Position numbers and translations under genes: made by a program. Positions 3,258-58,959 of a stretch of DNA of 64,000 bases are shown here, in pieces. Below the pieces are notes generated by a model. It was given only the letters and a program-made list of their open reading frames with translations. It made no database searches and was not told where the DNA came from. Source of the DNA: Moniliella sp. 'wahieum' (Eukaryota); the NCBI GenBank assembly GCA_003971905.1, contig RSEE01000038.1:310001-374000 (forward strand). Direction: 5' to 3'. Numbering within the stretch: the first letter of the stretch is position 1; every line of letters begins with the position of its first letter.

Positions 3258-4824
3258 GGTTGGTGTGTGTGTGTCTGGGGGGGAGGAGCGAAGGGAGAGC
3301 AAGGGGTGGTGGTGCCAGAAGAGGAAGGGCTTGGGCGGTGCCTTGGTCTAAAGGGGCGGGAGGGAGAGGAGGGGCCGGCGGTAGGATCAAAGAGCTCAGA
3401 ATGGCGAGAGTGTGACAGAGGTGATATATGGCGACCGGTGACCGAAGCAGCACGAACAGGCCCGTGTTGCCAAAAGGCGGCAGGTGAGCTGGATGCGCGA
3501 TGCATGCGACGCGGATGCATGATGATGATGCAGCAGGACGCTTCTCCTAACGCAGTGCCACCCGGGCTAGCCTCGCCGTCGCCTGCCTTCGCCTATCTAT
3601 ATCACGGCAGCAGTCGGCATATATCCGGCGCGTCGGAACGGTACAAGCAGAGGGCGCTTGCATGCATCCCTTGCATCCCCCCTTGCACACGTGATAAACA
3701 GATCATCCATCCTCCATCCATGCCATGCACCACGCGTCACCTGACTTGGCACGCACCACGCTCACCGCATCGGCCCGCCCACACTGCCCCTGCGCCTGCC
3801 CTGTCGATCCGACAAGGTGGGCCTCTGGCACCCGGTGAGGGGTCTCTGCTCGGTGCACAACACACGACTGTACGCCCTGAATCCAACGAGCACAGCGAGT
3901 ACCTACCTATATAGGACCTACTGAATCCATCGCTTTTGCGAAACTTGGGGGGGCCCAAGAATCCCTTCTTGGCTACCAGCCTCGCACATCCCATGGTTGC
4001 TGTCAGCGCATGTCGGTTCGCACACTCAAGCTTCAAACAGAGGAAGGCAAAAGGATGTCAATTGCCCGTCAAGCTTCAAGCTTTTCAAAAGCCGCAATAA
4101 CCACTGTTCTTGACAACCTCTCGAATCCATTTAGGTAACGTCGACCCATAGTAGAATGGACGAACCTGCGACCTGAAGCTGGAAGGAAATGTTGTGTGTG
4201 GTGGGAGGGCTTGGCGAAAAGAAAAGGCCCCCCACTGAGGACATAAAGACCGGGGGAGGTGGTATCGAGAGCAGCCTGCCCGTTTTGGTCTATTCCAAAA
4301 CATAGTTCCGAGCGTGAGGGTGTTGCCTACTTGGAATGGGGGAGGATTGGGGGAGTCGGACGCAAGTCGTCACAGAATGAAGAAAGGTCCTGTACGAAGA
4401 GAGCCCCCCACCCTCTCTGTCTGTCTGATTGGGCTACAGGTCTTCTATTTTATCGGGGCCAGTTGTTTCCCCTCGCTACCCAGCCGAAACCCGTGAAGTC
4501 AAGAGTCGAAAGCGGTCGTTGGGGAGGCGTACGCAAGAGCATTGGTTGGCAATAGGAAGATATCGGTCATTTTGGTCATGTGGGCAGTACAGATGAGATC
4601 GAGGCGCACCGTTTTTTCTTTTGGGAAGAGACGCGGCGGGGGAGGGGGGGTAAAGCGAGGGGGGAAATGATAGAGTTCGATCATACAAGACGAAAGGCGA
4701 AGGGGGCAAGAAGGGAAAAAACGCAAAGAAAAATGGACGAGGAAAACGAAGAGGGAAAGAAAGGATTAATGTGAAAAGCAACGGCTCGAGGGACGAGGGA
4801 AAGATGAGGATGTCGTCTTGAAGC

Positions 4825-6240
4825 TCAAGGGCAGGAGACCCAAGGGGTCCAGAAAAAGGTCAGACGACAAGGAGGACCAGTCTCCCCGGTTAAGCCGCCG
4901 ACTGGATCAAGGACGGGGATTGGATGCAGGTGCGTTTCGTCGTTTCCGTATCGCACGGATCGGCTTCGGAGCGTAGATGTTTGTGGAATGCATTCGTCTT
5001 GCGCGGGGTACAGAGAGGGATAGGAGGATTGGGAAGACACGGGAGTTCCTCGGGAGGATCGGGGAAGTCTGTAGGAGGCAAGGAACGAAGTGATTCAGGA
5101 TCCTGCTCCCATTCTTGCTCCCGCTCCCGCTCCTGCTCCCGCTCCTGTCCCTGTTCCCGCTCCTGCTCCTCCGAGCGAGGCAAGAGCACCGGTCTCCCTC
5201 CCCACTTCACTTCCTCTTCCGAGACGGAATCAAAGTCGAACAAGTCTTCACCAGCACAGGTACATACACTCCAAACCGACGATGCACCACATACGCCGCA
5301 CGTTCCCTTGTCCTCCCCTCCTGCTTGGGAGGGGGCTGTCCCTGGTTCTCCAGCTCCATGCCAGGGGACCCGGCGAATGGCATCTGTTCTCGCCCAATGC
5401 GGCAGAGGGGGGCCAGGGGAGAACGTACAAGGACGGAGCAAGGGAGAGCGAGGAGAGCGGGACGTGCATCGCCATAGTCCGGGCGGAGGGGGTGCGTGTC
5501 AGGGCCGTCGGAACTACCGCAGAAGATTCGCGTTGGATGCGCGAGGGCGATGAGGAAGCGTCCCGTTTGGTCCAAGAGAACGGTGCGAGGGAGGTAGGGG
5601 AAGGAAAGGCAGTGAGCGGCAGGGACAGACCTCGAGGGCCGAAAGCGGCATCGCTAGGAACGAGAGGCACATCGAGTCGGAATGGGTGGGAGGATGGTCG
5701 TGGTGGGTGCGGGCGGTGGGGTAGTAGTAGGGGTGGTTTGTCGGCATGGTTTTGGGACGCGTCGTGTGTGGGAGGGGGCGCAGGCGGGAGGGCAGCGGGC
5801 TGGTCCGAGGAGGCCGAGGAGCTCGAGGAAGGGGAGGCCGGGTGGGTTGTACAGAGTGCGCAGGGCGACATTGCCTGCTTCAACGTCCTTCTCGGCGAGC
5901 AGCGAGTCGACGTGTGCTTGAGGAGGGCAAATTGGGTCTCGTATGTCTTTACCTGGGTTTTCGAGCTGATGTAGATGGGCTTGCTGGCGTTCGCGATAGG
6001 GCGCGTTGGGAGGCACGATTTGGGCGGCGCGTTTGCTGGCCGGACATCTTCCACCGCTTGCGGCCGGGTTTGTTGCGCGCCTTGGGTTCGGCAGCGGGGG
6101 CAGAGGGCGGCGCAGCCAGCTGGGGAGGGTGCGGAGGGGTGCGGCTGGGGTGGCAGGGGGATGGGGCATGGGGTAGAGCGGGGGCTGGGCGTGGGCAGGA
6201 GAGGGGAGCATGGCGGCGGAGGAGAGGGAGAAGAGGGCAT
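4825..6240 (-). CDS. Yap/HapX-like bZIP transcription factor with a C-terminal Cys motif
   Basis: Fragments in three frames around 5850-6080 join as KPGRK..VEDVRPA.KRAAQNRASQRAYRERQQAHLHQLE.QVKTYETQFALLK.HVDSLLAEK, a Yap-type basic region plus zipper. CGVCGASSVWSVCTC lies near 5250-5300. The ends are approximate because of many frameshifts. Confidence 0.7.
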
Positions 6241-6593
6241 CTGTGACAGCGATATCGGGTGCTGCCGTGGGGGATGGATAATGTACTGGCGCGTGGGTCT
6301 GTGCGGACGAGGCAGCGGATCAGAGAGGCAGCAGGTGGCTCGAGCCCTCTCGGCTGCCGCCTGCTGCCTGCCCGTGTAACCTCGACGTTGTTCAACCTTG
6401 AGTTCAACCCTCGACACAGTTGCGCCGCCGAGGCGCCCGCGCTCCCACCCGCGTCCCATCTCCATTTCCAATCCCACCAGAACACAGCCGCCGGCTGCCG
6501 CCTGGGAAATGCGCCTAACACGCCTGATCTCAGGCCCCACCGGTCACCGGCCCCCGGCCTCACCCCGCCCCTTAAGGTAACCCAACGCGGAGC

Positions 6594-7170
6594 AGCGCTG
6601 AGCGCTTGGTGTCATTCTGATGGACGTGAGCCGCTGCCCAGCGTGCGCGCGCTGAGCTCAGTTCAGCCTGAGCGGTCTGAGCTGAGCCGCCGTACACCCA
6701 GTCATCTACCCATCGAATCCTCCCCTCCCATGCGTGGACACCCCGCGCCTGCCCGGCCCCGTCTCCCGCCCCAGCCGGTCCGTCTCAGCACAGGGGCAGC
6801 GAGGCGCACCCGCCTGTTCCGGGCGGACCCGAGCGAACTCCCACGTGGCGCAGGGCCAGGCGGCTCACGCGCTACGGCAGCAAGCGCCAGCACACCGCAC
6901 GCGGATGTGACGCGTGACGCGCGGATATGCTGGCGGTGGCTTGGCCTAGTGAGCTCAGCCTCAGCGTCCAGCGACACGCGCCGCTGCTCAGCGCCCAGAG
7001 CTCAGCCAGCGCTCAGCGCTCAGCCTCCGCGCTCAGCGCGCGCTCTCGACATCGCGCCACGCGTCACGCGTCAGTTCAACGTTCAACGTGTTCAACGTTC
7101 AACCCCAGTCCCACGGAATTCCATGGAACCGCCTCCCCCCCTTGAGATTGAAGCTTGAAGCTTCAAGCTC
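6594..7170. repeat. Cluster of 7-bp-period palindromic hexamer tandems upstream of the bZIP gene
   Basis: AGCGCT-G-AGCGCT (6594), AGCGCT-C-AGCGCT (7008), ACGCGT-C-ACGCGT (7059), AACGTT-C-AACG (7078, 7094), AAGCTT-G-AAGCTT-C-AAGCT (7151). Confidence 0.85.
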
Positions 7171-8972
7171 CAAGAGAGGCGGGTGGTGCTCATGCACATG
7201 CCAGTGTCAGCAGTCCCAAAACTTCTCCGGTTCGGTGCAATCCCAGTTCGTGCAACCCACGCGCTGGGTCCCAGTACACCCGGGGTATAATACTCTGTTT
7301 GATCTCTATATATCTTCCTTTTAGGAACACCACTTCAATCCGTCTTTCATCAACGTCCCAACGTCAACCATCCCAACCTGGCTGCCCGTCGAAACACGAT
7401 CCAGTGTTATGGATGCGGGACTTGGTAGGAAACACGTAAACACGCCTAGAGCTCGCCGCTGCCCCTGGCCACTCCCACACCCGCACCTCAAAAACGCAAT
7501 CAGACAGCCGACACCACCGCATGTAATATCAACGTTTTTTTTCTCCTTCCCCTCTCCGCCTGCACCTACATATTGGCCTTCCTGTCACCAGTCGATCCAG
7601 CAGGAGAGAAGGGCCACATCAGCTTTGCCTACATATGCGATGCGTGTACTGCATTCCATCCGGAAGGCATGGCAACACTCGTTTCCCCCCCGAGGTCACC
7701 CGCGGCGACAATGAGGGTAACGCGCACATGCTGTATAGCGCATACGCTATTACTTACCCTTCCCGCAGACTCTAGTACATATGCGCAGCATCTGGTCTCT
7801 GTTTTGGCTAACGGGTGAAGTGCAGGGTCTGCTACTGCTCTTTCCGCTTCATATTTGCTCTCTGCCCCCCTCCCCGCTCGTGCACTTTCCATCCTCTGTG
7901 GCGCTACCGTGCCCTGTGCCTCGGTTTCTGCTTTGGAATTTTGGCATCTTCTTCCATTTTGGCCTAAATTCATCATGTGTTTCTGGTACCAACTCTTTCC
8001 CAGTTCGTATCCCCAAAGATAGGGGTTGTCCTCCCTTTTCTTCCTGTTGTGGTTCTCACCACCCAAGCGAACCACCCCCTACAGCCGCGTTGACCCTACC
8101 AGCACGTGGAGCCTCTTGGCATCATCGGACCTCAGGGAACATCGTCCTATGAGGTGGACCATGATTGATACCACGCCTCCCCCTGTAGGGACGTGCCTTA
8201 AAGGACTCCTTTGGGTGGCCCTAAGTTCACATGGAACCCACAGGAGGATGGATCTGGGGACCATTGTGGAGGAGGCGTAACCACCGCTGTACCGACATGC
8301 TGTTACGCTGAGCGGCTGAACGCTGATCTCTTTGGCCCGATTGACCGTCAAGCCATGCACGTTGTGGTCTGGAGGATGGAACGGTGGGGGAGGGGGTGAG
8401 AGGCGACACTCTTCCCGCCCCAAGGGCATACCCGTTTTGTTGACAGGACGAATGTATCGGCCGCCGTCGGTCTTTTTCTTTCGTCGGGTTGAACACGTGT
8501 GGATCGAAGACACAACGGATGGGGGGCAGGATGAGAGGGGTGAGATGGAGATTTTTAGCGAGAGCTTCTGAGGCAAGCGGCCAAGAAGGTCACTGGTCAC
8601 TGCCACGCGTGCAGGATGAAATGTTCAGGCGGTGGAGCGGCCAGCTCTGCGATGCATCTCGCGCGCCTGGCATTGCCTCAGTGCCCGCGTCTGGGCTGGC
8701 GCTGTGCCTCCTCCCCGCTGCTCGGCCGCGGGGGGAGTGGCCGGGAGTGGCACGTCGTCCACGCGCGCCTAACCCTACGCGGCGCGCAGCCGTGCGTCTG
8801 CCAGGGCGCAGTGTTTCCCTCCAAGGCACGGCGAGGGGCCAGCGAGCGAGACGCTCGGCAGGCTCACAGCCCTGGTGCCCCTCGCCCCCTGCCCCCCTCG
8901 GCCGCGCTTCCTGCCACACAACCGACCCACCTTAGCGCCACCCACCACCACCTCCGGCAACGACTGTTCACC

Positions 8973-9759
<787 letters not shown>

Positions 9760-10701
9760 AATGGGATTGGATTCGGAGTGCGGCGTGCTTCCTGCTCCCC
9801 CCTCTGTTCTGTGGAGGGTAGTGTACCCCTTCCTACCCCCCCCCCCCCATGTACTGATAGCCCCTTCCCCCCTCTTCCTTCCAATGTTTGTTGCTATGGA
9901 TGATCATTGGCTGGAGGATTGATAGGCTGCCCTCGGGGGGCACCGGGCTTCCCCCTTACGCTTCTCCCAACCCTTGCACACACAATGATGCACCGCAGCA
10001 GCTATCTATCTGAGCGCACCCTCACGCGCTGGTTGACACAAGGGAGAGGTGGTGCCAAGTGGGAAAAACATAAATACTGCAAAAGTGTAGAAGTGTTGGC
10101 AGTAATCGCTAAACGTTCCCGGGGGTTAGTACTTAGTAGCTTCAACTCTGCGGCCCCGCATGCGCCACTGAAGGCTGGCTGAGCGCTCTCACCTGAGCCA
10201 GTTGGAGGGTGCCTATCTCTTTCTTGGTCCAGGGGTAGGTGTCCTCCAGGGGCTACCAATCCTCGGCCGAATGCGACATAGACCCTCAACCTCGGGGCCA
10301 TCTCAAAGGGGAGGGACCTGGGGGAGCACCCAGAAGGCTTGCGCGCGCGTCCAGTCTATCTACCAAACAGCAGCAGGTGAACGATTGAAACCGAGCCCAA
10401 CATGATCACATCTGGGCACAGCCCCTTGGCGAGGAACACTGTGATGTAGACTAGGTCGTGTGCGCATGCCAGGCAGTAGGGCAGTGTGGGTGATACCCGG
10501 CGGCCTGAGCGCCTGAGCGCCAGAGGGGGGGCTGGGGGGCTGGCTGGCGGTCCAAGCGGTTTCAACGTTCAACCCCTTCTCAGCAAAAGGCGCGACAGGA
10601 CGCCACGCCAATTTGTCAAGCTTTGTTGAACGCCAGGCGCTTGAAGCTTGCCCCACCACCGTCTTCTCCACCTCTGCCACCAGCCACCTTCGATCGTCGT
10701 T

Positions 10702-11366: not shown

Positions 11367-13387
11367 CGTCCACGCAGCATGCCGGCAGTTTCGCTCAGCA
11401 CGGTCTTGGACTCCTAGGCTCTCCCTTTTTCCCAACTGCTCCTTCTTTGCCTCTGGCTCATTTTCTCTCTCCTCCCGTGCCCCGCACACCCGCCTCTTCT
11501 TGCATCGGCATCCTCCTTGCACAGAACGCAGAAGAGTTCGTATGACCTCATGGAATGGACCGTCCTGCCAGATCCGTCTTCCCTACGACTGGAACCGAGC
11601 TAGGGCCTGGTTCTTTTGGTGTGGCGAACTGTGCTGGGCATGAATCATGTTGTTCCACTGATTCTTCGAGGGACTTTTGCAGGGGTTCACCAGAGCGCAG
11701 TCTCGGAGGGTACATCGACCGTGCCAGCTGGGTTGGCATTGCTTAGCAACGGATCACCGGCCGTGGCCCCGTAGGTTAGATCAGGAGAACAACGGAGCAA
11801 TCTGAGGCATCGTTGTTGCCTCTCAAGATGGACGGGACGGGGGGTGACCTGAAACGGTTCCACACCAACACCAGTGAGATATCCAGCCCTTTTCAACCGT
11901 TCCCTTGGTGGTCGACTGAAGCTTGGCTTGATCTATCGCCAGGCGAGAAGGCTTGGCCGGCACCGCTGGCTTGCCATGTAGGTGTGGAAGGTGTGGATCG
12001 GGCTGCGGCGATTGTTTTTTGGAGTGACGCGTGTGGAGCTGGAGCGATGCCCTGATCCACCCGCCTATGGAGACCGCAATGGATGCTGAAGTGTATAATA
12101 GGGCAGTAGTAGCGTAGGCGATCTCTTGCGGGCGCGAGATAGGCGTTGGTGATGGCAGCAGGATGAGAGCCACAGGAGCAGACTATTAGTCGCTGGGGCT
12201 TACGTGGCTGTGCGTGCATCACCAGTTTTTGGTGCCTGCGGAGCCTCGGGGCTAGTGAGGTCGGTTAGTAGTGCTCCACGTCCAAGGGAGCCAGCCACCG
12301 CCGCCACTGCAGAGAGCCGGGATGCACTTCCACGGCGTCGCCGCCACATTGCATTTTGTTTGGGCTATACTCTTGGTCGTAAAGAATAGCTGTGGACACC
12401 GGAATGGGTAACGTGGGGGTAGCCGTGCTGGCACTCGGTTGCGGGAATGCCTGCTAAGGGATCAAGTCTTGAGGAGCTTGAGGGGACGCCTCCGTCCTCA
12501 GCCCCTGTATTACACACAAGATGTTTGTCAATAGATAGCCTCCGAGAGGCGGAGCACCGTGGCGTAGCAGCTGTCAAATCTCATCGATCTCATCGTTGGC
12601 TGATCTCGCTCCCATTTCCAATTGCTTCGTCCTGAGCGAGGCGTATGGCAGCAGCGGCGTACCCGGAGTGGCGTAGCGTGTTGCGCGTCACTAGCATCAC
12701 TTGCAGCTGAACAAGCCCGCGTGACAGCGGCATGTGACATGCGACATCACACGGACGGCCCTGTGAGTTACAACTTACGTATCTATCATCGACTAGCAGC
12801 CGCCCTGCGGCTTGCGTGGCGGTTGTCACCATGTCATATCCCCTGAGGGCGTCGAGCACCGAGTGCCGGCCTGTGCTGCGTGGGCGCTGTCAGTGACTGG
12901 GTGCTGGGCGACGGATTTGTTTACGTTTCCGCCGTTTTGAAAAGCGCGGGGCGGAACGGGGCCAGGCAGGCGGACCGCCAGCGCGGACGCTGGGCAGCCG
13001 CCGGGCGCCTGGGGCTTTGAAACTTTGGGTTGTGAGCCCGCACACTGGGCTGGGTGCAGGCCAGCCACCGTGCTGGCATCCCCCGCCGGGTCAAGCTGTG
13101 GTGCGGGGAGCCGCGGCCGCGCACTGGCGCTGTCCCGAGCCGAACGCAGCGCGGGGGCACAGGGGCACACAGCAGCCGCGCCGGCGGCCCCCGATGGGGC
13201 GGCGGGTGACGGGTGATGCGCCTGCTTTCCCATGCCTGCGCACCGCATCTGAGGTCGCATGCATGATGCAGCTCCCAGCCCTCCCTGCTCGGCCCGGCGG
13301 GGTCCGGGACGATTAAAAATCGCCGCTCCAGCCGCCGTTCCCTCTTCTCCTCCACCTCCCCTCCAACCTCCACCTCTCCTTTCTACC

Positions 13388-29907: not shown

Positions 29908-30446
29908 GTTGAGCTGCGGTATCGACGTTGCGGGAGGGTTGGCGGGAAGGAACATAAAAAAAGCGAATGCGGCCCGGCAAGCTGTGAAATATGCACACAC
30001 GATAGTCCAGGCACAGAACAAGGCTGCGCTGCGGTCTGTAGAAGCCAAGTGCATCACACCAGTGGTGTAGCCTTCTGCGGTGGTGGCCTGCTGCGAGCAG
30101 TCATATGCGAGCGAGCGAACAGGGTCATCGATTGAATTGGGAGGGGGAGAGTAGTGTGGAATGCGTGTCCTCCTAAACTCACCGCCTGAGTCATTGCAGT
30201 GGAGGACGTACGTATACAGGGAAGAAAGAGCATCGGCTCGCGCTGCTTCGACCGAAACAGAGCTCGTCAGGCCCTCAGCCTTCAGGACGTCAGGCATCAG
30301 GTCGCACGCCCGGGCCCCGTCCTTCCACCCAAGCCTCGGATACCCTACTGGCGGCGTCTTGGAGCTTGGACAAATCGATTAGTGGAGGCCGAGGACTGAC
30401 GGGTGATTAATGGAGGCCGAGTTTGATGGATATTGAATGGGTAGTC

Positions 30447-39317: not shown

Positions 39318-39875
39318 TAACATTGAGGAGATGCGCGAAACGGAACAGCTATTGCTCTCCCCCCTCCATTTCCCTCAAATAACACATTGGACAAAGTAAA
39401 CAATACTGTTTATACCGGACAACAGAGTAAAGTAACACCTCGTCGACCATGTATGAGGAAACGATGAGATGAAGCCGATAAAGGTATTTCCGTTACAATA
39501 TCCGTTTCATTGGAAGAATGCTAATTGTGTGTGAGGGGAGAGGAGACAGCGGCGTATAGTCATAAGCACACGTATCCCACAAAAAGACAGTGAAGAACGT
39601 ATATCTTTGCCGCCCTAGAGCCAAGAGGGAAGGCAGACTCATACACAGAAATGGAAGACGGGTGAGGGCTGGGCTCTGTGCGAACGACGGTTCATCGGAT
39701 CATCGATCATCCCATGCACATATATTGTACGTCCGTGCGATATGCCCTAAAAGACGTTATCGTGATATAAAAAGTGTGGAGTGGGGTTGCGCAGGGGGAG
39801 TAGGGGCAAAGGTGGGCCCTCGAAAAGACATCATCGCGCGTAAGAGCGGTGAGAGGGGGGGGGGGGTGAAGGAAG

Positions 39876-42250: not shown

Positions 42251-44209
42251 GGTGCTGGGAGGAGGGCAGGAGGGAGGAGGAGGGAGGGGAGTGGAGTGGA
42301 AAGGAGGACGTGCCGCCGAGGTGGTTGGGGGCGGGAGGGGCTGCGAGGGCGGGGCGAATGCTGGCGGGCCGACCGATCATAAGCCTGGGCTGCTCTGCAT
42401 GGCGTGAGTGCTCGGCAACGCTTTGCGCTTATAGAAGGGGTGATTGGTGACTAGGTGGCTAGTGACTGTCAGGAGTGATATAGCGATAGCGACTAGTGGC
42501 TGGTGGCATCCTGGCGTCTAGTGCTACATTGATCTAATCGGCCATGGGGTCAGTTGCCGGCTACGCGAGATTGCGGCTGTGCCTGGATGCGGCCCAGTGC
42601 ATGGGGCCGCCCTGGAGCAGGCACGGGGAGCTGCATGCGCCCGGCCAGCCGGCGGCCGGGTATGCATGCTTGTGCATGTGCCGTCTTGTACGTATATAGT
42701 GTACGTATATAGCAGGTGAATTAACCCTCGCATGTGCCTGGCGTCATTCTGCAAGCCATACCTCTGCCACTCCTGCCCGTCTTCGTGCCGCACCGACTGC
42801 CCCGCACCAGGCCGCCCAGGCAACCCCGGACATTTAATCGTTAGCGCTAATAGCGTTGGGTTCAAGCGGCCTGTAAATGTAAGCTGCATCGAATAACGCC
42901 TAGTCTAAGATCTAACGCACATCGATCATCGATCACTGCCTTCATTCACCACGCAGCACTGCTGGTGTGCGTGGGCGCTTGCGCTCAGTTGGGGGAGGAC
43001 ATGGACACCACAGGACACTACAGGACACTGCTCCTGCGTGTTGCCACCGCAAACGGTGATCTGCACACACTGGCAGGGAGGGCGCTGGTGGTGCGATGCT
43101 TATCGGACCGATTACAGATTGTTTCCCGTTTAGGCTCAGCGGCTGGAGCTTGAAATTTCCATCGTATCTCAGTCCCTAGTCCACGCGTCACACGTCACGT
43201 TCACCACTCTCAGACCAGCGGCTTCACATGCCGATTCAAATTTCATGTGCCAGGTCTCCATCCCCGCCAAGTCTGCCAAGCTCCAAGGTGGATGCTGGGT
43301 GCTAGCAACACGATTATCCGTTGTCATTTACGCCAACGCTCCCCCCCCAGCGTGTGGCGCGAGGGTGTGCACATCGGCCACCCACAACAGGCATCTGCTT
43401 CGTCACACTGTGTCACAGACGTCACTCGCGCTATCAGTCAGATAGTCACTAGTCACTGCATCACCCATCACGCGTCACTATACCCCGACCCACACTCTAT
43501 ATTAGCCACAGTAGCCACAGTGATAGTGACTAGTTGAAAAGCTTTTGAAGCTTATAGCGCGTTTAACGTTTAGCGGTTTAGCGCTTAGCAGGATAGCTGC
43601 TATAGCTTGAAACGCCTGAGGCCCTGAGGTCTGGATCTGAAGTGCTTGAAGCTTGAAGATAGTCACTAGTCACCGCAGGTCACCGGTCACCGGTTACCGG
43701 CCGCTTCAAGCTTCAAAAGATTGCCTAGATGCGTTATTTGTGTGCAATTTAAAGCGACGCATCGTTGTGGATTGGTGCCGCACATGTGCCGCTTCCCAGA
43801 CATTCCACACATTTTTCCCGTGTAAGCTCAGTGCTGCTCGCTGCTCACAATGACGATCAACGTATGAACGACCAAAGTCAACATCCGTGCTAGTAGTACG
43901 ACGCATTTTTGCGTCAACAACACTACACTAGCGAAGAAAATTACAGCTTTTTGAGCCACTACGGGGGTTACTAGTTACTATATTCAGGGGCCTCAGGCCC
44001 CCTCAGCGCGCGCCTATAGGGCCTATAACCATCCGAAGTCTCTTCGCCCCTCTTTTCTCTTTTGCACAACGCAGCCACCCCCGGCGGCGGCGTTTGGCGC
44101 ATCGGTGCCAGTGTAATAAGTATCGTTGCGGTTGAAATAGACCACCACCGTCACCGCGTCACCACCATAAAGTGCAATTGGATCGCTCTCAAGAGGGCCA
44201 CACCGAAGG

Positions 44210-45175: not shown

Positions 45176-45327
45176 GCAAGTACCCAGGATCTACTTGGTC
45201 CATCATCTGCATCATGATGGGCCCCTAAAAACAAATTGGGAGTTAGGCACACAGCCCTTTTGGTCTATACTAAGGTGTGCCAAGAAACCACGGTGGGACG
45301 GTGTTGATAATGTGGGGTATATTACGT

Positions 45328-45435: not shown

Positions 45436-45856
45436 AATTCAAGATGAGTTAATGGGGGAATCTCATCCCAACACAACAATGCCGGTGGCATCGCTCAATG
45501 TGGTGTCGTATATCAGATCTCTATATGCATCCACCCAAAAGCAATGGGTGTGGGTGGGGTAACCAGTAACCGGTTACCGGGCGGTTAAGAGAGCCGATAT
45601 AATGTGTTTAGACTCGCCCGCTTCTCATCTATTTTTCATCGATCATCCCCACCGTGTGGGGCCCCACGGCAGCCGCCGGCCCGCGGGACAACGCTGTTTT
45701 GACAAAATAAGCCCTGGCCAAGTGGCTTTAATATATATCGGTGTACCCTAGTGCTGTAACAGGAGAAACCCCTCACGACCACCATCACTTCTCCTGTCTT
45801 CTCTATCAAACTGCATAAACCACCCGCACGAATTCACCATTTTCTGCCTTGGGCAT

Positions 45857-47168
45857 ATGAGTTCATCAAATGTCAAACTCACCGTCCTTCAAACGGCTGT
45901 GGCCGATGCATTGAGCGGTGTGCTGGCCAGTGCCGCCGTCTTCCCCCTCGACACGATCAAGACTCGGATTCAGGCTGATCCGAGCAAGACGCATTACGAT
46001 CACGGAGACCTGTATGCAGCCGATGGCACCCCTCGCAAGCGCCGACTTTCGTTCGGTGACGGCCAGGTGGCTGGATGGATGCGTGGGCGGATACCTTTGT
46101 TCCATGGGCTGCTGATTCACCTTTCCCATGGCCAGATCCTGGGTTTGTACAAGGGGTTCTCAGCTACAATGGTTAGCACTTTCTTTATGCGTATGTATTT
46201 TCCCCACCCCACACTCACCTCCGTTTTCTGCGCTGACCACAACTTGTTGAATTGGAACACGGGCAACAGAGCTGTGTTACTTTTACTGGTACACGCTCTT
46301 GCGCACCCAGTATGTGCGGCGGCTCCTCCGCCGTTCTCCTTCCGGTGCCCATCTGTCGACCTTAACGGAACTGGGGATTGGCACGGTGGCGGGGCAATGG
46401 CGCAACTTATCATTCTGCATGCACGCCATGCACCTTATTGCCACCAACAGCAATTGGCCTCAACTCGCTCGGCCCCATCCACGACGGCACCTCCGGAGGA
46501 GAAACCCAGAATGAGCGTTGATAATGGAACCGATCCGCTTACAACCGACAAGACCGAGCAATCGCCCACGCCCTCTCCGACTTTACCTTCTCCTGCTCCT
46601 GACCATAGCGTTATCGGGATTGCCAAACAGATTTACCAAGACCATGGCCTGACCGGTTTTTTACTCTGGCCTCAAGCCGACGATGCTCCTATGTCTCAAC
46701 CCGGGCCTGACATATGGGCTGTTCAACCGTGCGTCTTTCCCACATAACCTTCTTTTAACACTTCCTTCTCCGTATACTAACCTCCATCTCACACCAGGAA
46801 TGAAGGAAGCCCTTCTGAAAGTAACAGGGAAAAGGGCACCACGCCTCTCCAAACATTTGGATTAGGCGCAGCTTCCAAAACCGTGGCAACGGTGGTGACC
46901 TTCCCACTGATCCTCGCAAAGCTGCGCTTGCAGGCGCGGGAAGCATCCTCATCCGGGGTCGTACGAGCATGTGGGCATCCTACGGAAGTGGTTAGCGGGC
47001 CAAGGGGTGCGAGGTGCCTACCATGGCTTGGACTCGCACATCATCAAGACCGTGTTGAGTCAGGCTTTGCTTTTTGTTGCTAAGGATACGTTCGAGGCGG
47101 TGGCCTTGATGATCATTCTCTTTGGGCGCAGGGGTTGGCGGCTTGATGCAACGTCCTGCTCGCAGTAG
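45857..47168 (+). CDS. Mitochondrial carrier family protein, most similar in pattern to the peroxisomal adenine nucleotide transporter (Ant1-like)
   Basis: Carrier signature FPLDTIKTRIQA in repeat 1, GLYKGFSATMVSTF, LCLNPGLTYGLF, ATVVTFPLILAKLRLQA, GAYHGLDSHIIKTVLSQALLFVAKD. Introns lie at about 46191-46269 and about 46729-46797. Confidence 0.85.
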
Positions 47169-50009
47169 CTCTCACCAAAACGATATTCTCTTTTTTGTTT
47201 ATTTTCTCCCCGTGGGCAAAAGCGATCGATACCAAACCTCAACCACAATTGATTGGGGAACTCTTGCCCCTCAGGTCTGTGGACTCACATTGTGGCCCCC
47301 TTTCCCAACTTCTGGGGCAGAGGTCTGGTCAGGACCTTGCCTATATATTTTCTTGACGTTAAAATGTGATGACCGTGACGTGAACGAAGACTGACCCTCG
47401 TACAAAAGATAATAGGAACGATCGAGAAGAGGGGTGTTTGTGCCACAGGTACAAAAAAAAACGGCAGACGACCGAGATAAAGAAAACGAATAACTGGTCA
47501 TTGCAAACCCCCAAGGTGCACAGGCACAGTGATGGGATCTCAATGACACACAGGCTCCAACTAGAGCATGACTCTCACTAGGAAAAAAAGGAAAATCCCG
47601 GCCACAATATAGGCATTTTAGACGCGAGATCTGAGATCTGAGAGGGAGGCCAACAGCATGACTCGTTGAATGGCTGCGCGGGCCGATTGATCAACGCTGC
47701 TGGGCCACAGACAAGTCGACAAGCACGACCAAAGACCCGAATTACACGCAGCTTCTTGTCCGCCTCAAGGCTCGCAAGGAGAAGTTCGTATGCTTTTGGT
47801 CCTGAAACTGTGGAACCTGCCGAAGTTCCAAGTGGTGCATATTTCCCGCCACACCCTCGATGATGTTTTCGGACGCGGATATTGAGAAAGAGCCTGTGGC
47901 ACCTATGAAGACGAATTTGGGCCAGTGTTTTCCAACTAAGCATGTGGCTTCCCGCACTCAGCCTCAGGCTTCTGGCTGCGATTGTGTCGTTGATCGCACG
48001 GACGATGTGATGGACGACGAGCATCTCGAGGGGGAGGATGCTATTATAATCTCCCACCTCCCATACCAGGACAAATTTCCGTTGCGGAGACGATACATGT
48101 CGAGCCTCGGCATATGCAAGTCATTCAAAAGTCAGACGAGGATCTTCCCCCGCATCCCTTGCCTGGCAGACAAGTAGCAGCTACGCAGGCGATGGGGTCA
48201 AAGGTGTTGTTCCAGGCATCATCCGTCGTCAAATCGCGCCTGCGTTATTGTTTTTTTTCCACTGCCCGTGTTGCCTCAAGTGCAGCGCTAACGGTGGGCG
48301 ACCCAATCGCTCTTTCGCTCTACTCCTTAATCGTTCCGCCGGAAAGAGTCCGAAAGTGTACTCTGTCATCCAAATGCACTCGTCCCTCATTTCATCAGGG
48401 ACGACCACTGCACGGTGCTGCTACTGCCCCTTGAATAGGCAAGCCCTCTTACGCGTTGAAGAGCGAACTTTGACAGAATGTCGGATTCTACAATGCATTG
48501 GGCGTGGATTGAAGGTTGAATTACGATTGGATAGCTGACATATGTCTCCTCTTTTGTAGTGATAGCGTCCCTGTACATCACTTTCTTCCTCGCCATACAC
48601 ACAAGGGCATGAGCAAGGCCCCGAAGGTGACCTGGTGGATCCCCCAGTTGGGCCTTGAGCGCGGCCTTCGCTCTTGGTGGTGCAGCTACTTTCGGAAGAG
48701 CAGTGCCAACCAATTTTGCTGCTGTGGTGATGGTTGACACGGTGGCGGATGACGATTGCTCGCGGCGTATTGTTGCGGCGCCGGAGTAACTCTTTCTCGG
48801 TCCATAAGTATACCAGTAAATCCAGCTTGTGTATAGTATGTTCACCGCTGCAACAGTCTGTGATCGACCCTTCTTTTATCCTCTTGTGATCCTCCCGATC
48901 CTCCTGATCCTCCTATAGTCCTCCTGATCCTATTCTGTCGGACCCTTGAGGAATCACTTACCACATCACAGTTTGAAGCATGGCCCTAGCGCCTTTATTA
49001 CCAAACACTTATATCTTGGAGTAGTAGAAGACACGTTTGCTCAGATGGGCCCAACTCGCTCTGTTCTGCAATTTTTTCGGTGTTCTCGCATTTGTGACCT
49101 TTTCCGAAGACCTAAGCCTCACCCTCATCATGTGGGCCTACTGTGGCTCTCGTGATGCTATCTATGATCCCCGGGTGATGGCCACCTTACTGTGTTTTAC
49201 CATCAGCGAAAAAGTATGGCCGGTATTGTTCTTATACCCCGGTGTTCGGTAGGTGAACGCGCCAACAGTCTTTCTTTGTGCTTGTACACGGTGGAATATC
49301 GATGTAGCCAATCCCGTCTCCACCCCCTTACCATGCGGTGCGAGAAGGCCACAAGTAACCTTTTTGTTGTGGTGAGACGCCAGCCGCTTATAGACGAGAG
49401 AATGATGCCCTACAATATCGACGACGACCGTCCGACCCTGGCTTGTTGGCATAGTACTTGACCAGTGACTACTGCTCCCCTCGTAGTATTGATAAGCATT
49501 GACAAGTGTTCCTGTAGTATAGGGAGGGTACCTGCCTTGAAGCTTGATGAGCGCTGAGCATTTGAGTACACTGAGTACTGTGGGCCCCGACGGAGCGCAC
49601 GCGATTTCTGTTGTGATGTTGATAAGGTTCACGATGTGCCCTGAATAGACCGAAGACAATAGTACCACTATGTGTTGTGCCGAAACCATGTGGGCAGCTC
49701 GATGCTTTGCAACCGAAAGCTAAGTGCCACACCAGGCACTACGGGACCACTGAGGTATTGAAGAACTCATCTTCCACAAGATGTTAAACCCAGAATAACT
49801 ATAAGGCCCAACGTCTGCAGCACCACACCGTCCAATACTTTGCTCAAGCGTCAAGCTTCAAGGCTCCTGTGGAGCACATGACATATTCACACACAAGACA
49901 CAGACCAGACATACCTGGGTGGGTCCTTGGTCCTCTCGAACAGGGGGACCGATAAAATCCCAAATCTGGATTACTGGCCATAAGCTCATGAATCGTCAAA
50001 CATCGATCA

Positions 50010-51204: not shown

Positions 51205-54200
51205 AGATCTGAGATCTGAAGGAGGTGTAGGTAGAACGGGGGAGCTCGGGGTTGCACGTTGACCGAGTTGAACCTCAGTGCTCAGAATGGTACGGGTTGC
51301 ACTGGGGAGGGAGCAAGCTAGTCAAGGACCTTGATTGTGGAGCCAAAGTTTGAACGCCCTAGAGCCTTCTAAGCGATGCTAAGCTGCGCAGATTCAATCA
51401 GCAACCGTGGGGATCTTCGATAAAGTACTACGTGTCGAGGTCCTGCACAGAAAGACAGCCAAAGCCAAAGCCAGGCAAGACTGTCACCATGTCAACGGAG
51501 CAGATCATACGTACCGAAGATACTCGCGCGACAGAGGCGACCGGCAGATGGACGGCAAAGAGGAACACCCGGTGACCTGGTGATGAGGGTGGGGGGGCGC
51601 GCACACCGATTGGATTCGGTGCCTTGTGAGCTGAGGTGAACGGTGGACGCAGAGCGGCGCACTGGACGTTCGTTGAACGTGGTTGAGCGCGTACGTTGAG
51701 CGCTGAGCGACGGGACGAGGCAGTAGCACTCGGTGGGGCAAGGGTAGATCGGGGAGCTGTCACAAGGCTGGAACCGGCTGGAACTGGTGCGAGGCGGAGG
51801 GCAGGGGGACGGGGGGAGTGGAGGCGAGAGGGAGGTGATGTGAATGCAGACGACGACGATGGATCGATGATGGTGTCTGGACTGGCCGACGTGCACCGCA
51901 GCGACGCAGGAGGCCGTGCGAGGATGGCTGTCGGCCCTGAACGTCTGAACGATCTGAACGTTGAACGTTGAACGTTTAAAATGCGCTGGCTGCGGGCGGT
52001 GGCGTGTCGCCGGTGTCCGGTGGTCGGTAGGGTTACCCAGGTCGCGTGGCGCGTGGCAGGGCTGTACGTTTTATGAGGCGTCAATCAATTGATTCACAGA
52101 AACGGAGGTCAAAGGCCGGTCACCTGTCACGCGTCATCGGTCACTAGGTCACTGAGTCGCTTGCCACTTCTTGTCACATGTCACACCTGTCCCGTAGCAT
52201 CTGATCAGTTTTTTTTAGCTTCACTACATCACATGCAACCACTGGGACAAGCGTCCCGTGTCCGTCGTCTGGACAGCCTGGCAGCTGGACTCGCGATGCT
52301 ATAGTGAACTTTCGTTGAACTCAGAGACTCACCTATCGCTTGGGCCCCCTCAGATCTCAGTGAGATCTGAGGCTCAGACCTCATGCATTGCCCATGTGCG
52401 CATTCTCATTCACGCGTCATTAATTCGTCATCCATCGATCCTCCAAGAACGTTCGCGGTTATCGAAGAGCCGTCCTATAGTCATTTTTTCCTTTTGGCCT
52501 GCTTCTGCTTTCTTGCATCTCTGGTATCCCCTCAGCGCTGAGGCTTAGCGCTCAGCACCCTCAGGCCTCAGCTCTTATACAAGGACAAGGAAACGTTTCT
52601 TGCATGCATGTCCATCCAGAAGCCAAGTTGTGTCAGGCCAAAAGAGTGTCCTCTTCTCCATAGACTCCATCTCCTATTATCGATTATCTCTCGCATCTCA
52701 GATCTCAAATCTCATCGTTCTCGAGCTCTCGATCTCAAGCTTCAAGACTTTGGATAATCCGCATTGCAATGGATTTCAGCTTAAGTGTCAAGGCCAAAGG
52801 GGGCTCGCGGGCCGGGAGCGCGGCACAACTACTATACGACGGCCCGGTATACGTAACCTTTTGGTGTCCTGTCTTTAGCGCATGTTAGACGTTAGCGAGA
52901 CACCCGGTAACATCCCGAACACGTCGCCTCAGGTCACCGGTGTCACTAGCTTCACCAAGCAAACAACCAGTAGAGCTGCTGTCATTCACCGTGTGTGACT
53001 GCAAATAGGCCAACCGTTTCACGGAATTAATGTGCGCGGCGTCACATGCTTACCTCCGGGGGTGTGCAACGCTGTGGTGACTACAGTAAGTATTAGCGAA
53101 AATAGATACATGGAGGGAGTCATGAGTACCATGGATGCATGAGTACTGAGTACCTGAGTACTTAGCGTACTTAGCACTGAGTTTCACTTTGCCAAGCTGC
53201 CAAGCTCTCTTGAATTAAGTATTGGCGCACCGACTGACACATATGCGAGTGACATTGATGCATATATTGATGGGCGAGTCCGGACAGTGAGGCCGAAGGT
53301 TATGCGCGCGTGCCCATACTGGCAGTGTGAGGTGTATCCTATCCAGAGGCTGTTGTTTCGGGTCAGTACTCAGTCTGAGTACTCAGTAAAGCACAGGTGC
53401 ATCCTGCAAAAGAAGAAACGGCTATAGTACATTTCCTGAACCCATGAGGTATCTCACTCTTTTTGAGGTATTCGCCCTCACGCATTTGGCGCACACACCA
53501 CACCGTCCGTCACATATTCACATGTCACACTGGTAAACCACAGCTCAGCACCGTCGTCCAATCAGACAAGACATCCATGGCTCGAGGCCTTGTCGAAGAA
53601 GGGAAGACATGTCATGATGACATGCCACCCCCACCGCCAAAAAGCGGCGTATGGGAGCGTGCGCGAGCATGCGACTCAGCATTGGCTCCTATACGTGCGT
53701 TCTCTTACAATATACCAAGAAGCAAAAGTCTTTATATCGGCGCAGCCAGCCCCGTCACGTGCAGGTGGGGAGCATAGGGTTGCAACTTTTTGGTGGGTCC
53801 TGCCATATGGTAATAGAAGATCTGTTTTCTTTTCGCACCGTGTAGCATTCTCACAACTCACAGTAGATCTTAGAACTGGACGATATCTGCGTTCTAGTAT
53901 GGATTGTGCTCAGAAAACTTAGCTACCACAATTGTCGTCAACAGAAGCTTCCAATGTAATTACGATTCCCTATATACACGTGTAGACCCGCCCTCCACAC
54001 GATACTGGCCTTACAGTGCTACTGTCGCTAGCAGATTCAGACGGGTATTACAGATGATGAGCAATGACGCGGACGTCTCTGTATAAGCGCCGCTAATGAG
54101 GACTAATGATGTGTACTAATGTGTAATGGCGCTAGTGACAGGTGACGATTCCATTATGCACGCGCATGATGGACCCGCGACCCTCCTCTCCCCGTACGTA

Positions 54201-55958
54201 GGCCAACAGGCGTCTTATCACCTTTTGCCTCCCCTTATTTGTCCTCGGAAGCCACCACATATATACTCTTCGGCTTGATCGAACCCTTGTCTCTTCCAAC
54301 AGAAGTAATATATGGCAAAAGGATTAGATCTCAGGCTGAGACATCACAGTTGAATCAACAGTAAGACTGGTAAGACTCGATCTGTTATATAAACGAAGGT
54401 GGTTCAGCGTGTTTCTCTCGGGGGTGGGGCATGGTGCATATATATGGTCGTCGTTAGCACCAAAATTACCCAGCGCAGCTCCAAGTGCCAAGGTTTGTGT
54501 GTGGGAGAAGATCAGACAATCCGCGGCACTCACCCGTGCTCATATTCTGAACCGTGAATAATAAGAGAGACACTTACGGGCTCGGCGGTCCTACACTAAG
54601 AAGCCCCTCGTGCATCACTAAGAATGACATCAACGTTTGTCTGTGTCTATATACATACACTCTGTGGCGCACTGATGGATTGCTGCGTACTGAGTGATTG
54701 CGGCCACAATAGGTCCTTGAAGCTTGATTATTCGGGACAGGGCGTGAGCGTCTTCAGCAAAGGCGCTGCAAGAGAAAAGTAGTAGTGGCCGAGTGCATTG
54801 TTAAGGCTAACCGCTTCTACCAGTTGTGGTTCTCACTAATAGTGAGGAGGTTGTTCAATGATTAATGACCACTGTGCGGGTCTCTTTTCTTTTGGCGCTT
54901 GCTTAATTGGTGCAAACACTTGGTCACCTATACGAATTTCCTCTTCCATCGACAGCTTGATCGCTCTGTCTTCGTCTTCACGCCCAAGGCGGTGAACTGT
55001 GACGGTCCTAATTCTCAGCTCTGAGAAGCTCTGAGAGAGCTCAGTGAGCGCTCAGTAGTATTGAATCCCCATTATACTATCGCAACCATGCATGTACGAC
55101 TATTCGGTGGTATGTTTGCATATCCAACTTGATTAATGCTTCCAAGATGGCGAGGGAGCTGCAGAATGAGCAAGTATATAATGCACGATGCCTCTCTCAT
55201 GATGCATGCACATTACTGATGATCGAGATGTCTATGATCGATGGCCAAAGTGCACAGCGCAGAGATCCAAACCAGCATCGTGTGGTCAAATGATTAATGC
55301 TTGCATATGTCATTTGCAGTACGGCTTAAGGCTGAGACAAACAACGCTGCGCCCCATCGGGATCGCTCATCTTCCGGCGTGTGCGGCTTGCTGGTGCCAG
55401 CCCACTTTTGATGTAGGAGACCAGTGGAGACTTGACTCCCATCACTTTTGCTTCCAATCGGATGTAGCGCAGACGAATATGAGCGCGGCAGACGTGGGAG
55501 CGATGTCGATGAACCAAGAGATGTATGGTGCATGGTACACGATTATGGTCTCGATCGATCGCGCGAGCATAGGAGACACGCTGGCATTATCACGGTCAAC
55601 GGCTTTTATTGGTACAACAAGCATCATGCATCATGTATCAGCACATCGGAAGCATGCATCTTTGCAACTCAAAACTCTCCGATCCAGCAATCTCAGGATC
55701 TCAGGGCATATTGATCGAGATCATGACAATCGATGACGATGACTAGTACACCAGTGACTTCACTTGTAACTTGGTGACTTTGTGACTTCAAAGCTTCTAG
55801 GCGTCTAGCTTCAGGCCCTGGAGCTTGGCCCTGGTCCGAGTCCGGGGGATTCACAGACACCTTGAGTTTTGGCTCTGTCAACATAGGGCCCTCCGAGAAA
55901 TAGCGAATAGGAACCGTCACAAAGGCTTTGGTCTCTTACGATGCCATGCATGATGCAT
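51205..55958. repeat. Long divergent intergenic region (PNC1 to bZIP) rich in 7-bp-period palindromic hexamer tandems
   Basis: AGATCT-G-AGATCT (51205), (AACGTT-G)x3 (51957), ATGCAT-G-AGTACT-G-AGTACC (53135), ATGCAT-G-ATGCAT (55946). Confidence 0.8.
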
Positions 55959-56263
55959 AATATATGGCCATCTCGATGACCAGTCGATGGCCCTCCAAAG
56001 AGGGTTTTGTTTCACTCAGGGATAAGGGATGCGCAGCTCCATGGGTCTTGACAGCCGAGTGTGACGGATCTTTCAGGCGGGGTGGCGTAACGCTAGCAAA
56101 CGCACCCGTTCGCAGCAGTATAGAAATATATATAAACCCCCCACCCACGAACCCTGATGGCAGAAACAAACACTTTCCTCCCCCCCTCCCCCACCAGCTC
56201 CCACCACGAACAGCCTGTGAGAGAGTTGAAACTCACCGACTATATACTCTCGGCCGGTTCATC

Positions 56264-57180: not shown

Positions 57181-58003
57181 CGCTGTCGACTTGTTCTTCT
57201 TACGCGTTTGTTGGCCTCACTCCTCAGTACCTCAAGACTCTTTCGTCATTAATCATGTTGCAACAAGTATAAATTTAGTGCTTTGATCTTTCTTGTCATT
57301 GCATGGTCGGATCCTTTTTCGTTAGCAGCTTCTTTTCTAGTACTAGTGACTCCGTTAGTGGGCTTCCGGGCCTTTTGTTGCTATGTAATCACTAATACGC
57401 ACCTTTTGTATACTTAGGATCGGGTGTATGTTGGAACACGTTCAGCAGGGGGAAGGAACCGTCAAAGGCTAGCTCCACGGTATATTCTGGAGCATGATAG
57501 GAGAGTGGCGTGCAAGGGAGGAAATCAAGGGCAGTGAGAGTTTCAGCCCCATCCGACCTCCTGGACGCGTGATGGCAGGCAACGAGGCGATGAAGAGCAA
57601 ACATGGTCCAGGGCCTCTTGTCGCTGCTGCATGGGCGGTTTGGGCCCGGCCAAAATACCACCCCCCCACCATCTCAACCAGTGTGATCCAAAGGGAAACC
57701 ACGGGTGCCGGAGGCCGGGCTGGGGTGATGATGACCACAATTGTTACCCCCGGGGGAGAGGGTAGGATTACCGTGAATTGTATTGGCTGAGTTGGACAGA
57801 CCCAGGAGGCGAGAACGAGGGTCTAAGGGGCTTGCGCTGTTATGGAGTTTGGTAGTATCACACCGATTCCCGTGGCGCGTTTTGACGATCTAAATCTCGT
57901 CATCATCCTCCGACAACAGACAAACAGTTGCTGCTCCGACATCCCCACACTTTGGCATTCCCGTGCCCCATCCTCGCTCAGATGAAGGGGGGGTTGGTGG
58001 TGG

Positions 58004-58610
58004 TCAGGATAATCCAAAGATATCAGTTTTGATTGTAGCCGTGTAAGCCACGGCGCCCTCCTCAGTTGCGGTATCCAACCGGTCGGAGAAGGCTAAGAGG
58101 GCGAGGACTTCACATTCGCTCGGGGTCAAAGCCCCCCAAGGTGTACTAGGCGGAAGAAGACGGGGGCGATGAGAGCAACGATCGTCCAGATGAGGACATG
58201 AGCGACCGTTCTGGCTGCTGCACACGGTGTGGGCCGGATAGCTGTCTCAGCGATAGTACTATAGATGAGATCAAATTGGCCATCAATCGCAACGGTTGCC
58301 ACATGTTGATGGTCGAGGAGGGCCCGCTGTTCCGGAGACAGAGCCAGGGAAATGCTGGTCTCAGCAACCACTCCACCGGGAATGGTACCCGGAATCCTCA
58401 TGACAGGGTCCAATTCCAACTCGTATGAGTCAGTAGGGCTGTCGGTGTACCAGGCGGGAAGGTGGGCTGTCCTTTTGGCTACAGGCCAGATTCAAAGCCG
58501 ACCACATCGTCCCAGGACATCTCGTCCCAGGCCAACGATGAATCTGTTGTTGTACCGTGGAGGCCGACATCTCCCGATAGCGTGTGCATGTGGCATGCTC
58601 CATCCGCCAT
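58004..58610 (-). CDS. Possible small orphan protein with one hydrophobic segment
   Basis: ORF fragments 58479-58691, 58126-58419 and 58004-58225 join into a protein-like sequence including VAHVLIWTIVALIAPVFFRLV. No family was recognised. Confidence 0.3.
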
Positions 58611-58959
58611 CGCAGGGGGCAGGGACGCAGAAGAGGAGGGGAAGTGGGGGCTGGAGGGTCTGGTCGATGGAAGAGCTTCCGGCACAGTCAATATTCAATC
58701 CACAGGACAGCCACAGCCCTCCGTTGGAGTGCAGTGGATCAAGTTGATCCACTTTGAAATTTGAATGTTGAACGTTGATGCATTATGACGATCTTCACTT
58801 CACCTCCCTCTCGCCAGATGATACCACCGACTTCTGGTTGGATGGTTCTCCTTGTGCATGAGAGTAGCCAACGTTGAGTCTCCCCTCTGTCGACTCTCCC
58901 CCTTCTTCAGAGGTCAAGTTACCTTAAATTATCGAATGAAGTCGTCGCTATCTCGTCCT

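Follow-up and report, generated by a model that had tools for sequence, protein, structure and literature searches.

A 64 kb stretch of the Moniliella sp. 'wahieum' genome (contig RSEE01000038.1, positions 310,001 to 374,000; referred to here, at its full length, as the window; G+C 57%) carries in its non-coding DNA many short palindromic repeats that obey a single insertion rule. At a TNA trinucleotide with two bases on each side, mnTNAxy becomes mnTNAxy + y'x' + TNAxy, where y'x' is the reverse complement of xy, so that five bases are copied directly and two in reverse. These repeats are probably footprints left when a cut-and-paste DNA transposon that duplicates 7 bp of its target was excised by way of hairpins, the element itself being absent from the window.

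The repeats had been described in a first-pass annotation as tandems of hexameric palindromes beginning with A and ending with T, with one base between the units, and all 19 of the coordinates that it listed contain the sequences given for them. Same-core tandems of hexameric palindromes (P6-N{d}-P6, d being the spacer length) were compared with 30 simulations at each of Markov orders 1, 3 and 5. There are 21 such tandems with an initial A and a spacer of 1 bp, against simulated means of 0.07 (order 1), 0.00 (order 3) and 0.23 (order 5), while all of the alternatives, with other first letters or with other spacers from 0 to 5 bp, number 0 to 2. Perfect tandem dimers of period 7 number 50, where an order-3 Markov model expects 4.2, with 14 at period 8 and 11 at period 9. 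A 6-bp palindrome lies inside the unit in 35 of the 50, has the form A....T in 33 of these 35, and is followed by C or G as the seventh base in 30 of the 33. TSA-N4-TSA (S being C or G) is seen 142 times against 53.6 expected, with a palindromic spacer in 72 cases against 4.1 expected. The pattern is real and far above chance, and it is specific for A....T palindromes, a 1-bp spacer and C or G at the junction.

The hexameric palindrome plus one base is not, however, the primary unit, which consists instead of five direct and two inverted bases around TNA. In each of the 96 TNA-[4-bp palindrome]-TNA decamers of the window, the two bases lying just outside either TNA were tested for completion of the palindrome. 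They complete it on the right only in 32, on the left only in 22, on both sides in 24 and on neither in 18, the last against about 15 that would arise by chance by our arithmetic; one-sided completion therefore dominates (54 of 96). As the neither-side class is at chance level, nearly all of the non-chance cases hold a 5-bp direct repeat, TNAxy, split by y'x'. The two bases adjoining a pre-existing TNA determine the core tetramer, and each of the at least 13 different cores is predicted by its flank. The A-[4-bp palindrome]-T-N appearance follows because A+xy+y'x'+T+N produces such strings automatically. Cores that mix in register, as in the sequence reported by the first-pass annotation and verified at 53135 (ATGCAT-G-AGTACT-G-AGTAC), where 7-, 8- and 9-bp gains lie within 40 bp, are explained by the different tetramers that result from use of the left or the right flank of a single TNA. 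The earlier statement that there are no cores made up of A and T alone holds for perfect hexamer tandems, none of which has such a core, but not for rule-obeying 12-mers, among which there are five sites (TTAA at 18437 and 54859, AATT at 31016 and 58755, ATAT at 58688).

With the centre left unconstrained, there are 120 structures with five direct and two inverted bases, 87 of which have a T.A centre (TCA 39, TGA 37, TTA 7, TAA 4), and each of the other 15 centre classes has at most 6. TNA-centred rule structures total 109, against a mean of 0.53 and a maximum of 4 in 40 simulations. Pairs of TNAxy peak at a gap of 2 nt (61 on the forward strand and 54 on the reverse), and this gap is the reverse complement of xy in 48 forward and 39 reverse pairs. 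In these 87 of the 115 pairs, the inserted bases are the reverse complement of the neighbouring flank end, which is a feature of hairpin-type footprints.

The wider gaps follow from the same rule. Among 37 gaps of 3 nt, 14 start with y'x', and 10 of these 14 go on with n, the base before the first TNA; among 39 gaps of 4 nt, 19 start with y'x' and 12 of these go on with mn. The chance values for these continuations, again by our own arithmetic, are 1/4 and 1/16. The scars thus belong to a single family, mnTNAxy + y'x' + (TNAxy, nTNAxy or mnTNAxy), with gains of 7, 8 and 9 bp. In the 8- and 9-bp variants one or both of the mn bases survive, which shows duplication of a 7-bp target and the addition of one or two palindromic (P) nucleotides. 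In every case y is the last base of the left copy and m, by symmetry, the first base of the right copy, so that the target is the 7-mer nnTNAnn, symmetric about N.

Founder events, defined as structures whose arms are not already palindromic, can be grouped by P nucleotides and bases lost. Two P nucleotides with a loss of two bases (5 + 7 bp copies) account for 45 founders against 0.30 expected, at 45 distinct loci; with a loss of one base (6 + 7 bp copies) there are 7 against 0.05, at 7 loci; and with no loss (two full 7-bp copies) there are 11 against 0.00, at 8 loci. Founders with one inverted base and no loss number 9 against 0.00 expected, of which 6 also fit two P nucleotides with a loss of one base; the distinct loci that can be read as having a single P nucleotide are three, one unambiguous and two that can also be read in that other way. 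There is one locus in the window with a plain 7-bp duplication and no inverted bases. A direct duplication of the target thus flanks the scar at 8 loci (no loss), 7 (one base lost) and 45 (two bases lost), as in hairpin-type footprints, and the palindromes at the joints are even (xy then y'x') in all of these 45 + 7 + 8 founder loci. Of 63 founders, 26 have C and 26 have G as the central base, and these equal counts indicate that there is no strand bias. Founders are present on 3.4% of non-coding TSA sites against 1.7% for TWA (W being A or T), approximately a twofold difference.

Such founders are difficult to reconcile with microsatellite slippage, even were it aided by the hairpin-forming palindromic units. 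Slippage may lengthen arrays, and there are arrays of three to four units at 22013, 30982 and 51955, but direct copying is unable to make two inverted bases from an unrepeated TNAxy, as at the 45 founder loci with a 7-bp gain. Neither the 8- and 9-bp variants nor the strict T.A centre is explained by it, and there is no comparable excess at periods 8 to 13. Slippage is therefore very improbable as the origin of the scars.

Other ways of generating the unit were tried and rejected. Copying of an already palindromic 7-mer does not account for the sites that are complete on one side only, and a 5-bp duplication does not account for extra gap bases that match mn or n. A 3-bp duplication with P nucleotides would yield TNA followed by TN', contrary to the sequence, and fold-back copying would yield TGA...TCA pairs, but adjacent TNA are mostly identical.

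The presence together of inverted bases and a 7-bp duplication calls for an integration-like step followed by a hairpin step, as is carried out by a transposase. It is unlikely that the scars were instead made by cut-and-repair independent of any transposon, in which a host (perhaps domesticated) hairpin-forming nuclease, or a staggered break with snap-back synthesis, acts at TNA. The absence of the element from the window, the unusually uniform outcome and the very high density of 59 stretches in 64 kb are all in keeping with such a process. However, a single break with hairpinned ends yields inverted bases with no direct 7-bp duplication, while a filled-in 7-bp staggered break yields the plain duplication, which is present at a single locus against the 45 + 7 + 8 with P nucleotides.

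If the scars are excision footprints, integration would have taken place at nnTNAnn, with N mostly C or G, through 7-bp staggered cuts that duplicate mnTNAxy. On excision, to judge from the even palindromes, the transposase would leave each flank as a perfect DNA hairpin, which a host nuclease would open 2 nt, or sometimes 1 nt, off the tip, so that xy becomes xy+y'x' with the addition of P nucleotides. End joining would then retain the P nucleotides of one flank, as a 4-nt overhang, and trim the other flank by 2, 1 or 0 bases, giving mnTNAxy-y'x' followed by TNAxy, nTNAxy or mnTNAxy and a net gain of 7, 8 or 9 bp. As the 3' overhangs would be incompatible, at least one would have to be removed, and immediate joining would keep exactly one palindrome, which would agree with the lack of enrichment of the +3 and +11 products. 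Each scar would offer two new nnTNAnn targets, and re-insertion, possibly with additional slippage, may lengthen scars into arrays. One of the two explanations raised in the first-pass annotation was that a recurrent process, for example hairpin-opening repair or the excision of transposons at TNA, had left scars, and it is this one that is favoured by the flank-dictated cores, the one-sided structures and the 8- and 9-bp variants.

RAG and Transib form perfect coding-end hairpins, and nucleases of the Artemis type cut hairpins preferentially 2 nt from the tip, which would give exactly the 4-nt xyy'x' overhang. Target duplications are 5 bp in Transib and about 9 bp in Mutator-like elements (MULEs). 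Hairpins on the flanking DNA are made by hAT, Transib, RAG and Muta1, and the Muta1 hairpin product of 43+43 nt has equal arms (available portion of PMC5499845); with RAG, Transib and Muta1, off-tip opening of the perfect flank hairpin gives an even palindrome, xy+y'x', as in the window scars. Muta1 excision is more than 90% precise (PMC5499845), unlike the scar-leaving pattern here. CACTA and Plavaka duplicate 2-3 bp, where the window scars have 7 bp at nnTNAnn, and EnSpm, which like Plavaka has 2-3-bp duplications, shares one clade with Plavaka, Transib and RAG1 (available portion of PMC12730594). On this comparison, the hairpin chemistry would fit better with an enzyme of the RAG/Transib/CACTA (CMCT) clade, or a Mutator-like enzyme, than with an Ac-type hAT.

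The canonical footprint of Sleeping Beauty/Tc1 is TA-C(A/T)G-TA, in which the central three bases are constant and come from the element ends. It resembles the window scars in being a 7-bp pseudo-palindrome with an ambiguous central base, but a model of this kind, in which a 4-bp palindromic target receives TSA from the element ends, is rejected because of the one-sided 12-mers, which have no second full palindrome. Excision of PIF/Harbinger is usually precise. PIF/Harbinger and Tourist-like elements share the T-N-A target preference seen here, with a duplication of 3 bp (PMC12730594) against 7 bp in the window. The 3-bp TNA/TWA duplication of PIF/Harbinger is not what the scars contain, as the duplicated stretch runs 2 bp past TNA on each side.

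A source among the Ac-type hAT elements (hAT7, for example), with the classical hAT hairpin geometry, is distinctly unlikely. The usual hAT target, nTnnnnAn, does not match nnTNAnn. Ac/Ds scars centre on the complement of the element-adjacent base (available portion of PMC5873905), and odd scars of this type, with the border base replaced by its complement, number 0 in the window in all five variants, against 45, 11 and 9 for the even classes. Ac/Ds footprints in plants, S. cerevisiae and Candida albicans are otherwise like those described here, with the target duplication retained on each side, insertions that are short and palindromic, deletions of small size, and joining of the ends once the hairpin is opened (PMC5873905). 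They differ in having odd palindromes, an 8-bp duplication and 28 types among 128, where the window has even palindromes, 7 bp and one dominant type. Neither the border-complement centre nor the 8-bp duplication of the Ac-type footprint is thus present. In support of such a source, hAT transposases are among those that form flank hairpins (PMC5499845), and the hAT7 of rust fungi makes 7-bp duplications and clusters with fungal and plant Ac/Tam3-like hATs (PMC12730594).

Kyakuja (KDZ) and hAT7, both of basidiomycetes, are the two fungal groups for which 7-bp duplications, as in the window scars, are reported, the former in Agaricomycotina including Russulales and the latter in rust fungi (PMC12730594). 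The available portion of that source, in which 'Ustilag' occurs 0 times, has no report of either group in Ustilaginomycotina, and the available portion of its text and supplement gives consensus sequences, but neither a target consensus nor the excision chemistry of Kyakuja or hAT7.

Several observations weigh against the excision of a transposon as the explanation. Inverted termini beside 7-, 5-, 3- or 8-bp duplications in the window are limited to chance-level pairs, and among 1134 pairs of nnTNAnn 7-mers lying 15-7000 bp apart there are 0 with 8 of 10 matching inverted terminal bases. A Pfam scan of 294 of the 313 open reading frames (ORFs) of at least 90 aa in the window showed host genes alone and no transposase domain; one footprint feature, an element that resides in the DNA, shares the duplication and has defined ends and a transposase, is thus lacking within the window. 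The scars are read from a single sequence. They are also more uniform in outcome than experimental hairpin scars, with 28 footprint types in 128 excisions in Candida, and the 59 perfect stretches in 64 kb demand very many cycles of insertion and excision. The +3 by-product (TSA followed directly by TSA) is not enriched (73 against 64 expected), and the +11 by-product with two palindromes is seen 0 times in the window. Some 80 other direct repeats of 5-6 bp with a period of 7 are in excess of expectation and lie outside the rule; decayed rule events were considered as their source and rejected, as these repeats have no TSA enrichment. For Kyakuja, hAT7 and CACTA-type enzymes, to our knowledge, the hairpin chemistry has never been measured.

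There are 76, 69 and 127 sites with 0, 1 and 2 mismatches at the 7 determined positions, against 0.2, 4.8 and 42.9 expected. This continuous spectrum fits a long-lasting process, with scars of all ages and neutral decay. The 59 perfect stretches are separate from one another and are densest at 28-34, 40-44 and 48-56 kb. Scars concentrate in intergenic DNA near genes, as at 30445-31655, upstream of a zinc-finger gene, and at 42904-43979, upstream of a permease gene. The avoidance of coding sequence remarked on in the first-pass annotation is borne out, with 3 of 78 rule-obeying sites inside Pfam-matched ORFs (18.9% of the window), all three at the edge of the ORF or in a likely intron. It may be that the scars are confined to non-coding DNA because most of the gains break the reading frame.

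Clustering beside genes would also be in keeping with a regulatory lattice, in which TNA half-sites spaced by 7 bp, with a palindrome between them, are recognised by a protein and the arrays are kept in promoters by selection, and TGA(C/G)TCA-like half-sites do resemble bZIP sites. There is, however, no recognition sequence shared by cores that are set by their flanks, TNA-P4-TNA without a flank match is at chance level, and the mismatch classes fall as they would in neutral decay. Neither binding-site selection nor the protein reading half-sites or DNA shape that had been put forward in the first-pass annotation predicts the 5- to 7-bp direct repeats or the 8- and 9-bp variants, and regulation of this kind is extremely unlikely to be the explanation.

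Two unlinked loci, 30966-31003 and 51940-51976, have 38-bp arrays that are 92% identical and come from the same seed, TGAAC. Near-identical arrays are what a sequence-determined rule would predict, and this pair looks like convergence via the insertion rule, not duplication. At 52127-52160 there is nnTCAnn every 7 bp, with the spacers CCTG, CGCG, TCGG and CTAG, which could be one old CCGG array altered at CpG, hinting at cytosine methylation and deamination. Period-7 arrays outside the rule, with neither TNA nor palindrome, are the purine-rich GAAAGAG and CGGACGA x3.7 (14414-14495, 32605-32630).

Metagenome contigs were scanned with (TCAAGCT)x3.4 as an idealised array, and the 120 loci examined amount to 528 kb. 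(AAGCTTC) arrays of at least 3.4 units are present in more than 120 contigs with G+C from 29 to 65%, and in 99 of the 120 loci there is no other rule event, so that the (AAGCTTC) array alone is not diagnostic; arrays of this kind would be compatible with slippage. One contig (L038; 12 kb, G+C 52%) has 7 perfect 7-bp dimers, 5 of them A....T palindromic with the cores AGCT, GATC and CCGG, and a single 9-bp gain, TATCATC+GA+TATCATC. It carries 14 rule structures, or 10 when the seed array is excluded, against 0.15 expected, and a helicase fragment that is 85% identical to a Lactarius deliciosus protein. The scar signature is thus present in a Russulales-like fungus of another subphylum too, Russulales being one of the orders with Kyakuja. 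The recurrence of the signature in an independent metagenome contig from another fungal subphylum, together with the context-dependence of the rule, its avoidance of coding DNA and the spectrum of ages, leaves a negligible probability for an artefact of sequencing or assembly. The same contig has two tandem MOV10/SDE3-like RNA helicase paralogues (2827-3342 and 8264-8779), from a family with several named matches in some Lactarius species.

The scars and related structures in the window are collected in Table 1. The genes around them are eukaryotic, some with introns, and include those for a Rad54 N-terminus, an FMN reductase, Arf, an MSP-domain protein, B12D, a RabGAP-TBC protein, a CAP-Gly protein, a C2H2 zinc-finger protein, an amino-acid permease (several exons), a mitochondrial carrier, an isochorismatase and a 998-aa HEAT-repeat protein. 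For the RabGAP, the best named relatives come from Violaceomyces (49%), Acaromyces (49%) and Malassezia (44%), and for the HEAT protein the best one comes from Malassezia (36%). These matches place the host in a lineage near Ustilaginomycotina.

Table 1. Scars, arrays and related structures in the window, by position (strand not assigned)
Position	Feature	Position of parts
4067..4083	founder scar CG-TCA-AG + CT + TCAAG (AAGCTTC dimer)	
6906..7169	in-register scar cluster with cores CGCG, GCGC, ACGT and AGCT	6906-6921, 7007-7024, 7058-7103, 7148-7169
8588..8602	plain duplication, GGTCACT x2, with no inverted bases; sole locus of its class	
10504..10518	8-bp gain CCTGAGC + GC + CTGAGC (on the other strand, one P nucleotide + full copy)	
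12468..12594	two 9-bp gains, each a full 7-bp copy + 2 inverted bases + full 7-bp copy	12468-12483, 12579-12594
21936..22040	AGGCCTA/TAA-TTA array and ACATGTC x4 array	
22640..22655	ATGCATC dimer	
30445..31027	cluster of AGTACT scars, ACTGAGT dimer, 9-bp gain, AACGTTG x3.3 and AATT-core scar	9-bp gain 30971-30986
31282..31655	CCGG-core founder scars and AAGCTTG array	founder scars 31282, 31413
32114..32997	8-bp gain, 9-bp gains, AGATCTG dimer and AAGCTTC x2.9	8-bp gain 32114; 9-bp gains 32170, 32582; dimer 32676; AAGCTTC 32972
33132..34741	ATGCATC dimer, 8-bp gain and AAGCTTC scar	dimer 33132; 8-bp gain 33797-33811; scar 34726
39698..39711	ATCGATC dimer	
42904..42937	GATC- and TCGA-core scars	
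43443..43979	dense cluster with cores CTAG, ACGT, GCGC, AGCT and CCGG, some mixed in register	
44149..44163	8-bp gain CGTCACC + G + CGTCACC (one P nucleotide + full copy; on the other strand, a (2,1) event)	
45634..47643	TCGA-core scar and AGATCTG x2.6	scar 45634; AGATCTG 47626
49536..49862	AGCT- and GCGC-core scars	49536-49559, 49849-49862
51205..51976	AGATCTG dimer, GCGC scar and nested 8-, 9- and 7-bp gains ending in AACGTTG x3	dimer 51205; scar 51695; nested gains 51936-51976
52127..52746	7-bp nnTCAnn lattice with cores partly decayed; 8-bp gain GGTCACT+AG+GTCACT	8-bp gain 52139
53138..53387	mixed-core TGCA/GTAC array with 7-, 8- and 9-bp gains within 40 bp; GTAC scars	GTAC scars 53361
54716..55960	AGCT and TTAA scars, ATGCATC dimer, 8-bp gain and TGCA scar	AGCT 54716; TTAA 54857; dimer 55621; 8-bp gain 55691; TGCA 55946
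58686..58780	ATAT-, AATT- and ACGT-core scars	

A paralogous gene pair, of unassigned family, lies at 35142-36465 and 44311-45441, approximately 9 kb apart and with a DNA identity of 72-88%; comparison of 35620-36520 with 44250-45250, a coding duplicate, gave no 7-bp indels of the informative kind. At 16266-16672 there are arrays with an 18-bp period (8.7 copies with 94% matches, followed by arrays of 3.9 and 3.8 copies) that have nothing to do with the 7-bp rule and probably encode a peptide repeat.

Excision scars of the hairpin type are textbook knowledge. In the literature search, no description was found of a pervasive, rule-governed and array-forming class of excision-scar repeats, in line with the first-pass annotation, which had known of none, nor was there a description of scars from elements with 7-bp duplications. 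Genome-wide excision footprints have been treated in rice (available portion of PMC4423477). The window scars most likely add a rule-bound way of writing new repeats that is undescribed in the literature found.

It can be proposed, tentatively, that basidiomycete genomes of two subphyla, those of this Ustilaginomycotina lineage and of the Lactarius-like Russulales fungus, carry a self-propagating mutational process in which transposons with 7-bp duplications write rule-set insertions of 7-9 bp at nnTNAnn, at about 1 per kb and with two new targets per scar. Scars, not slippage, would then be the main source of heptanucleotide repeats and of new promoter palindromes in these fungi, and the target, duplication length and hairpin chemistry of a biochemically unstudied class of transposase could be read from them. 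A bolder form of this proposal is that the enzyme is now kept by the host and acts without a mobile element.

Were the scars to be what they appear to be, one stereotyped transposon scar would be a major indel process in this genome, given the 59 perfect stretches and a similar excess of relics with one or two mismatches, and a mobile element would be seen to seed and extend short tandem repeats by rule. This would also explain palindromic 'motifs' in promoters that motif finders would mistake for binding sites. The target, duplication length and hairpin geometry of an uncharacterised fungal transposase would be readable from its scars alone, and counting mnTNAxy-y'x'-TNAxy would provide a simple test of past activity of the element in any genome.

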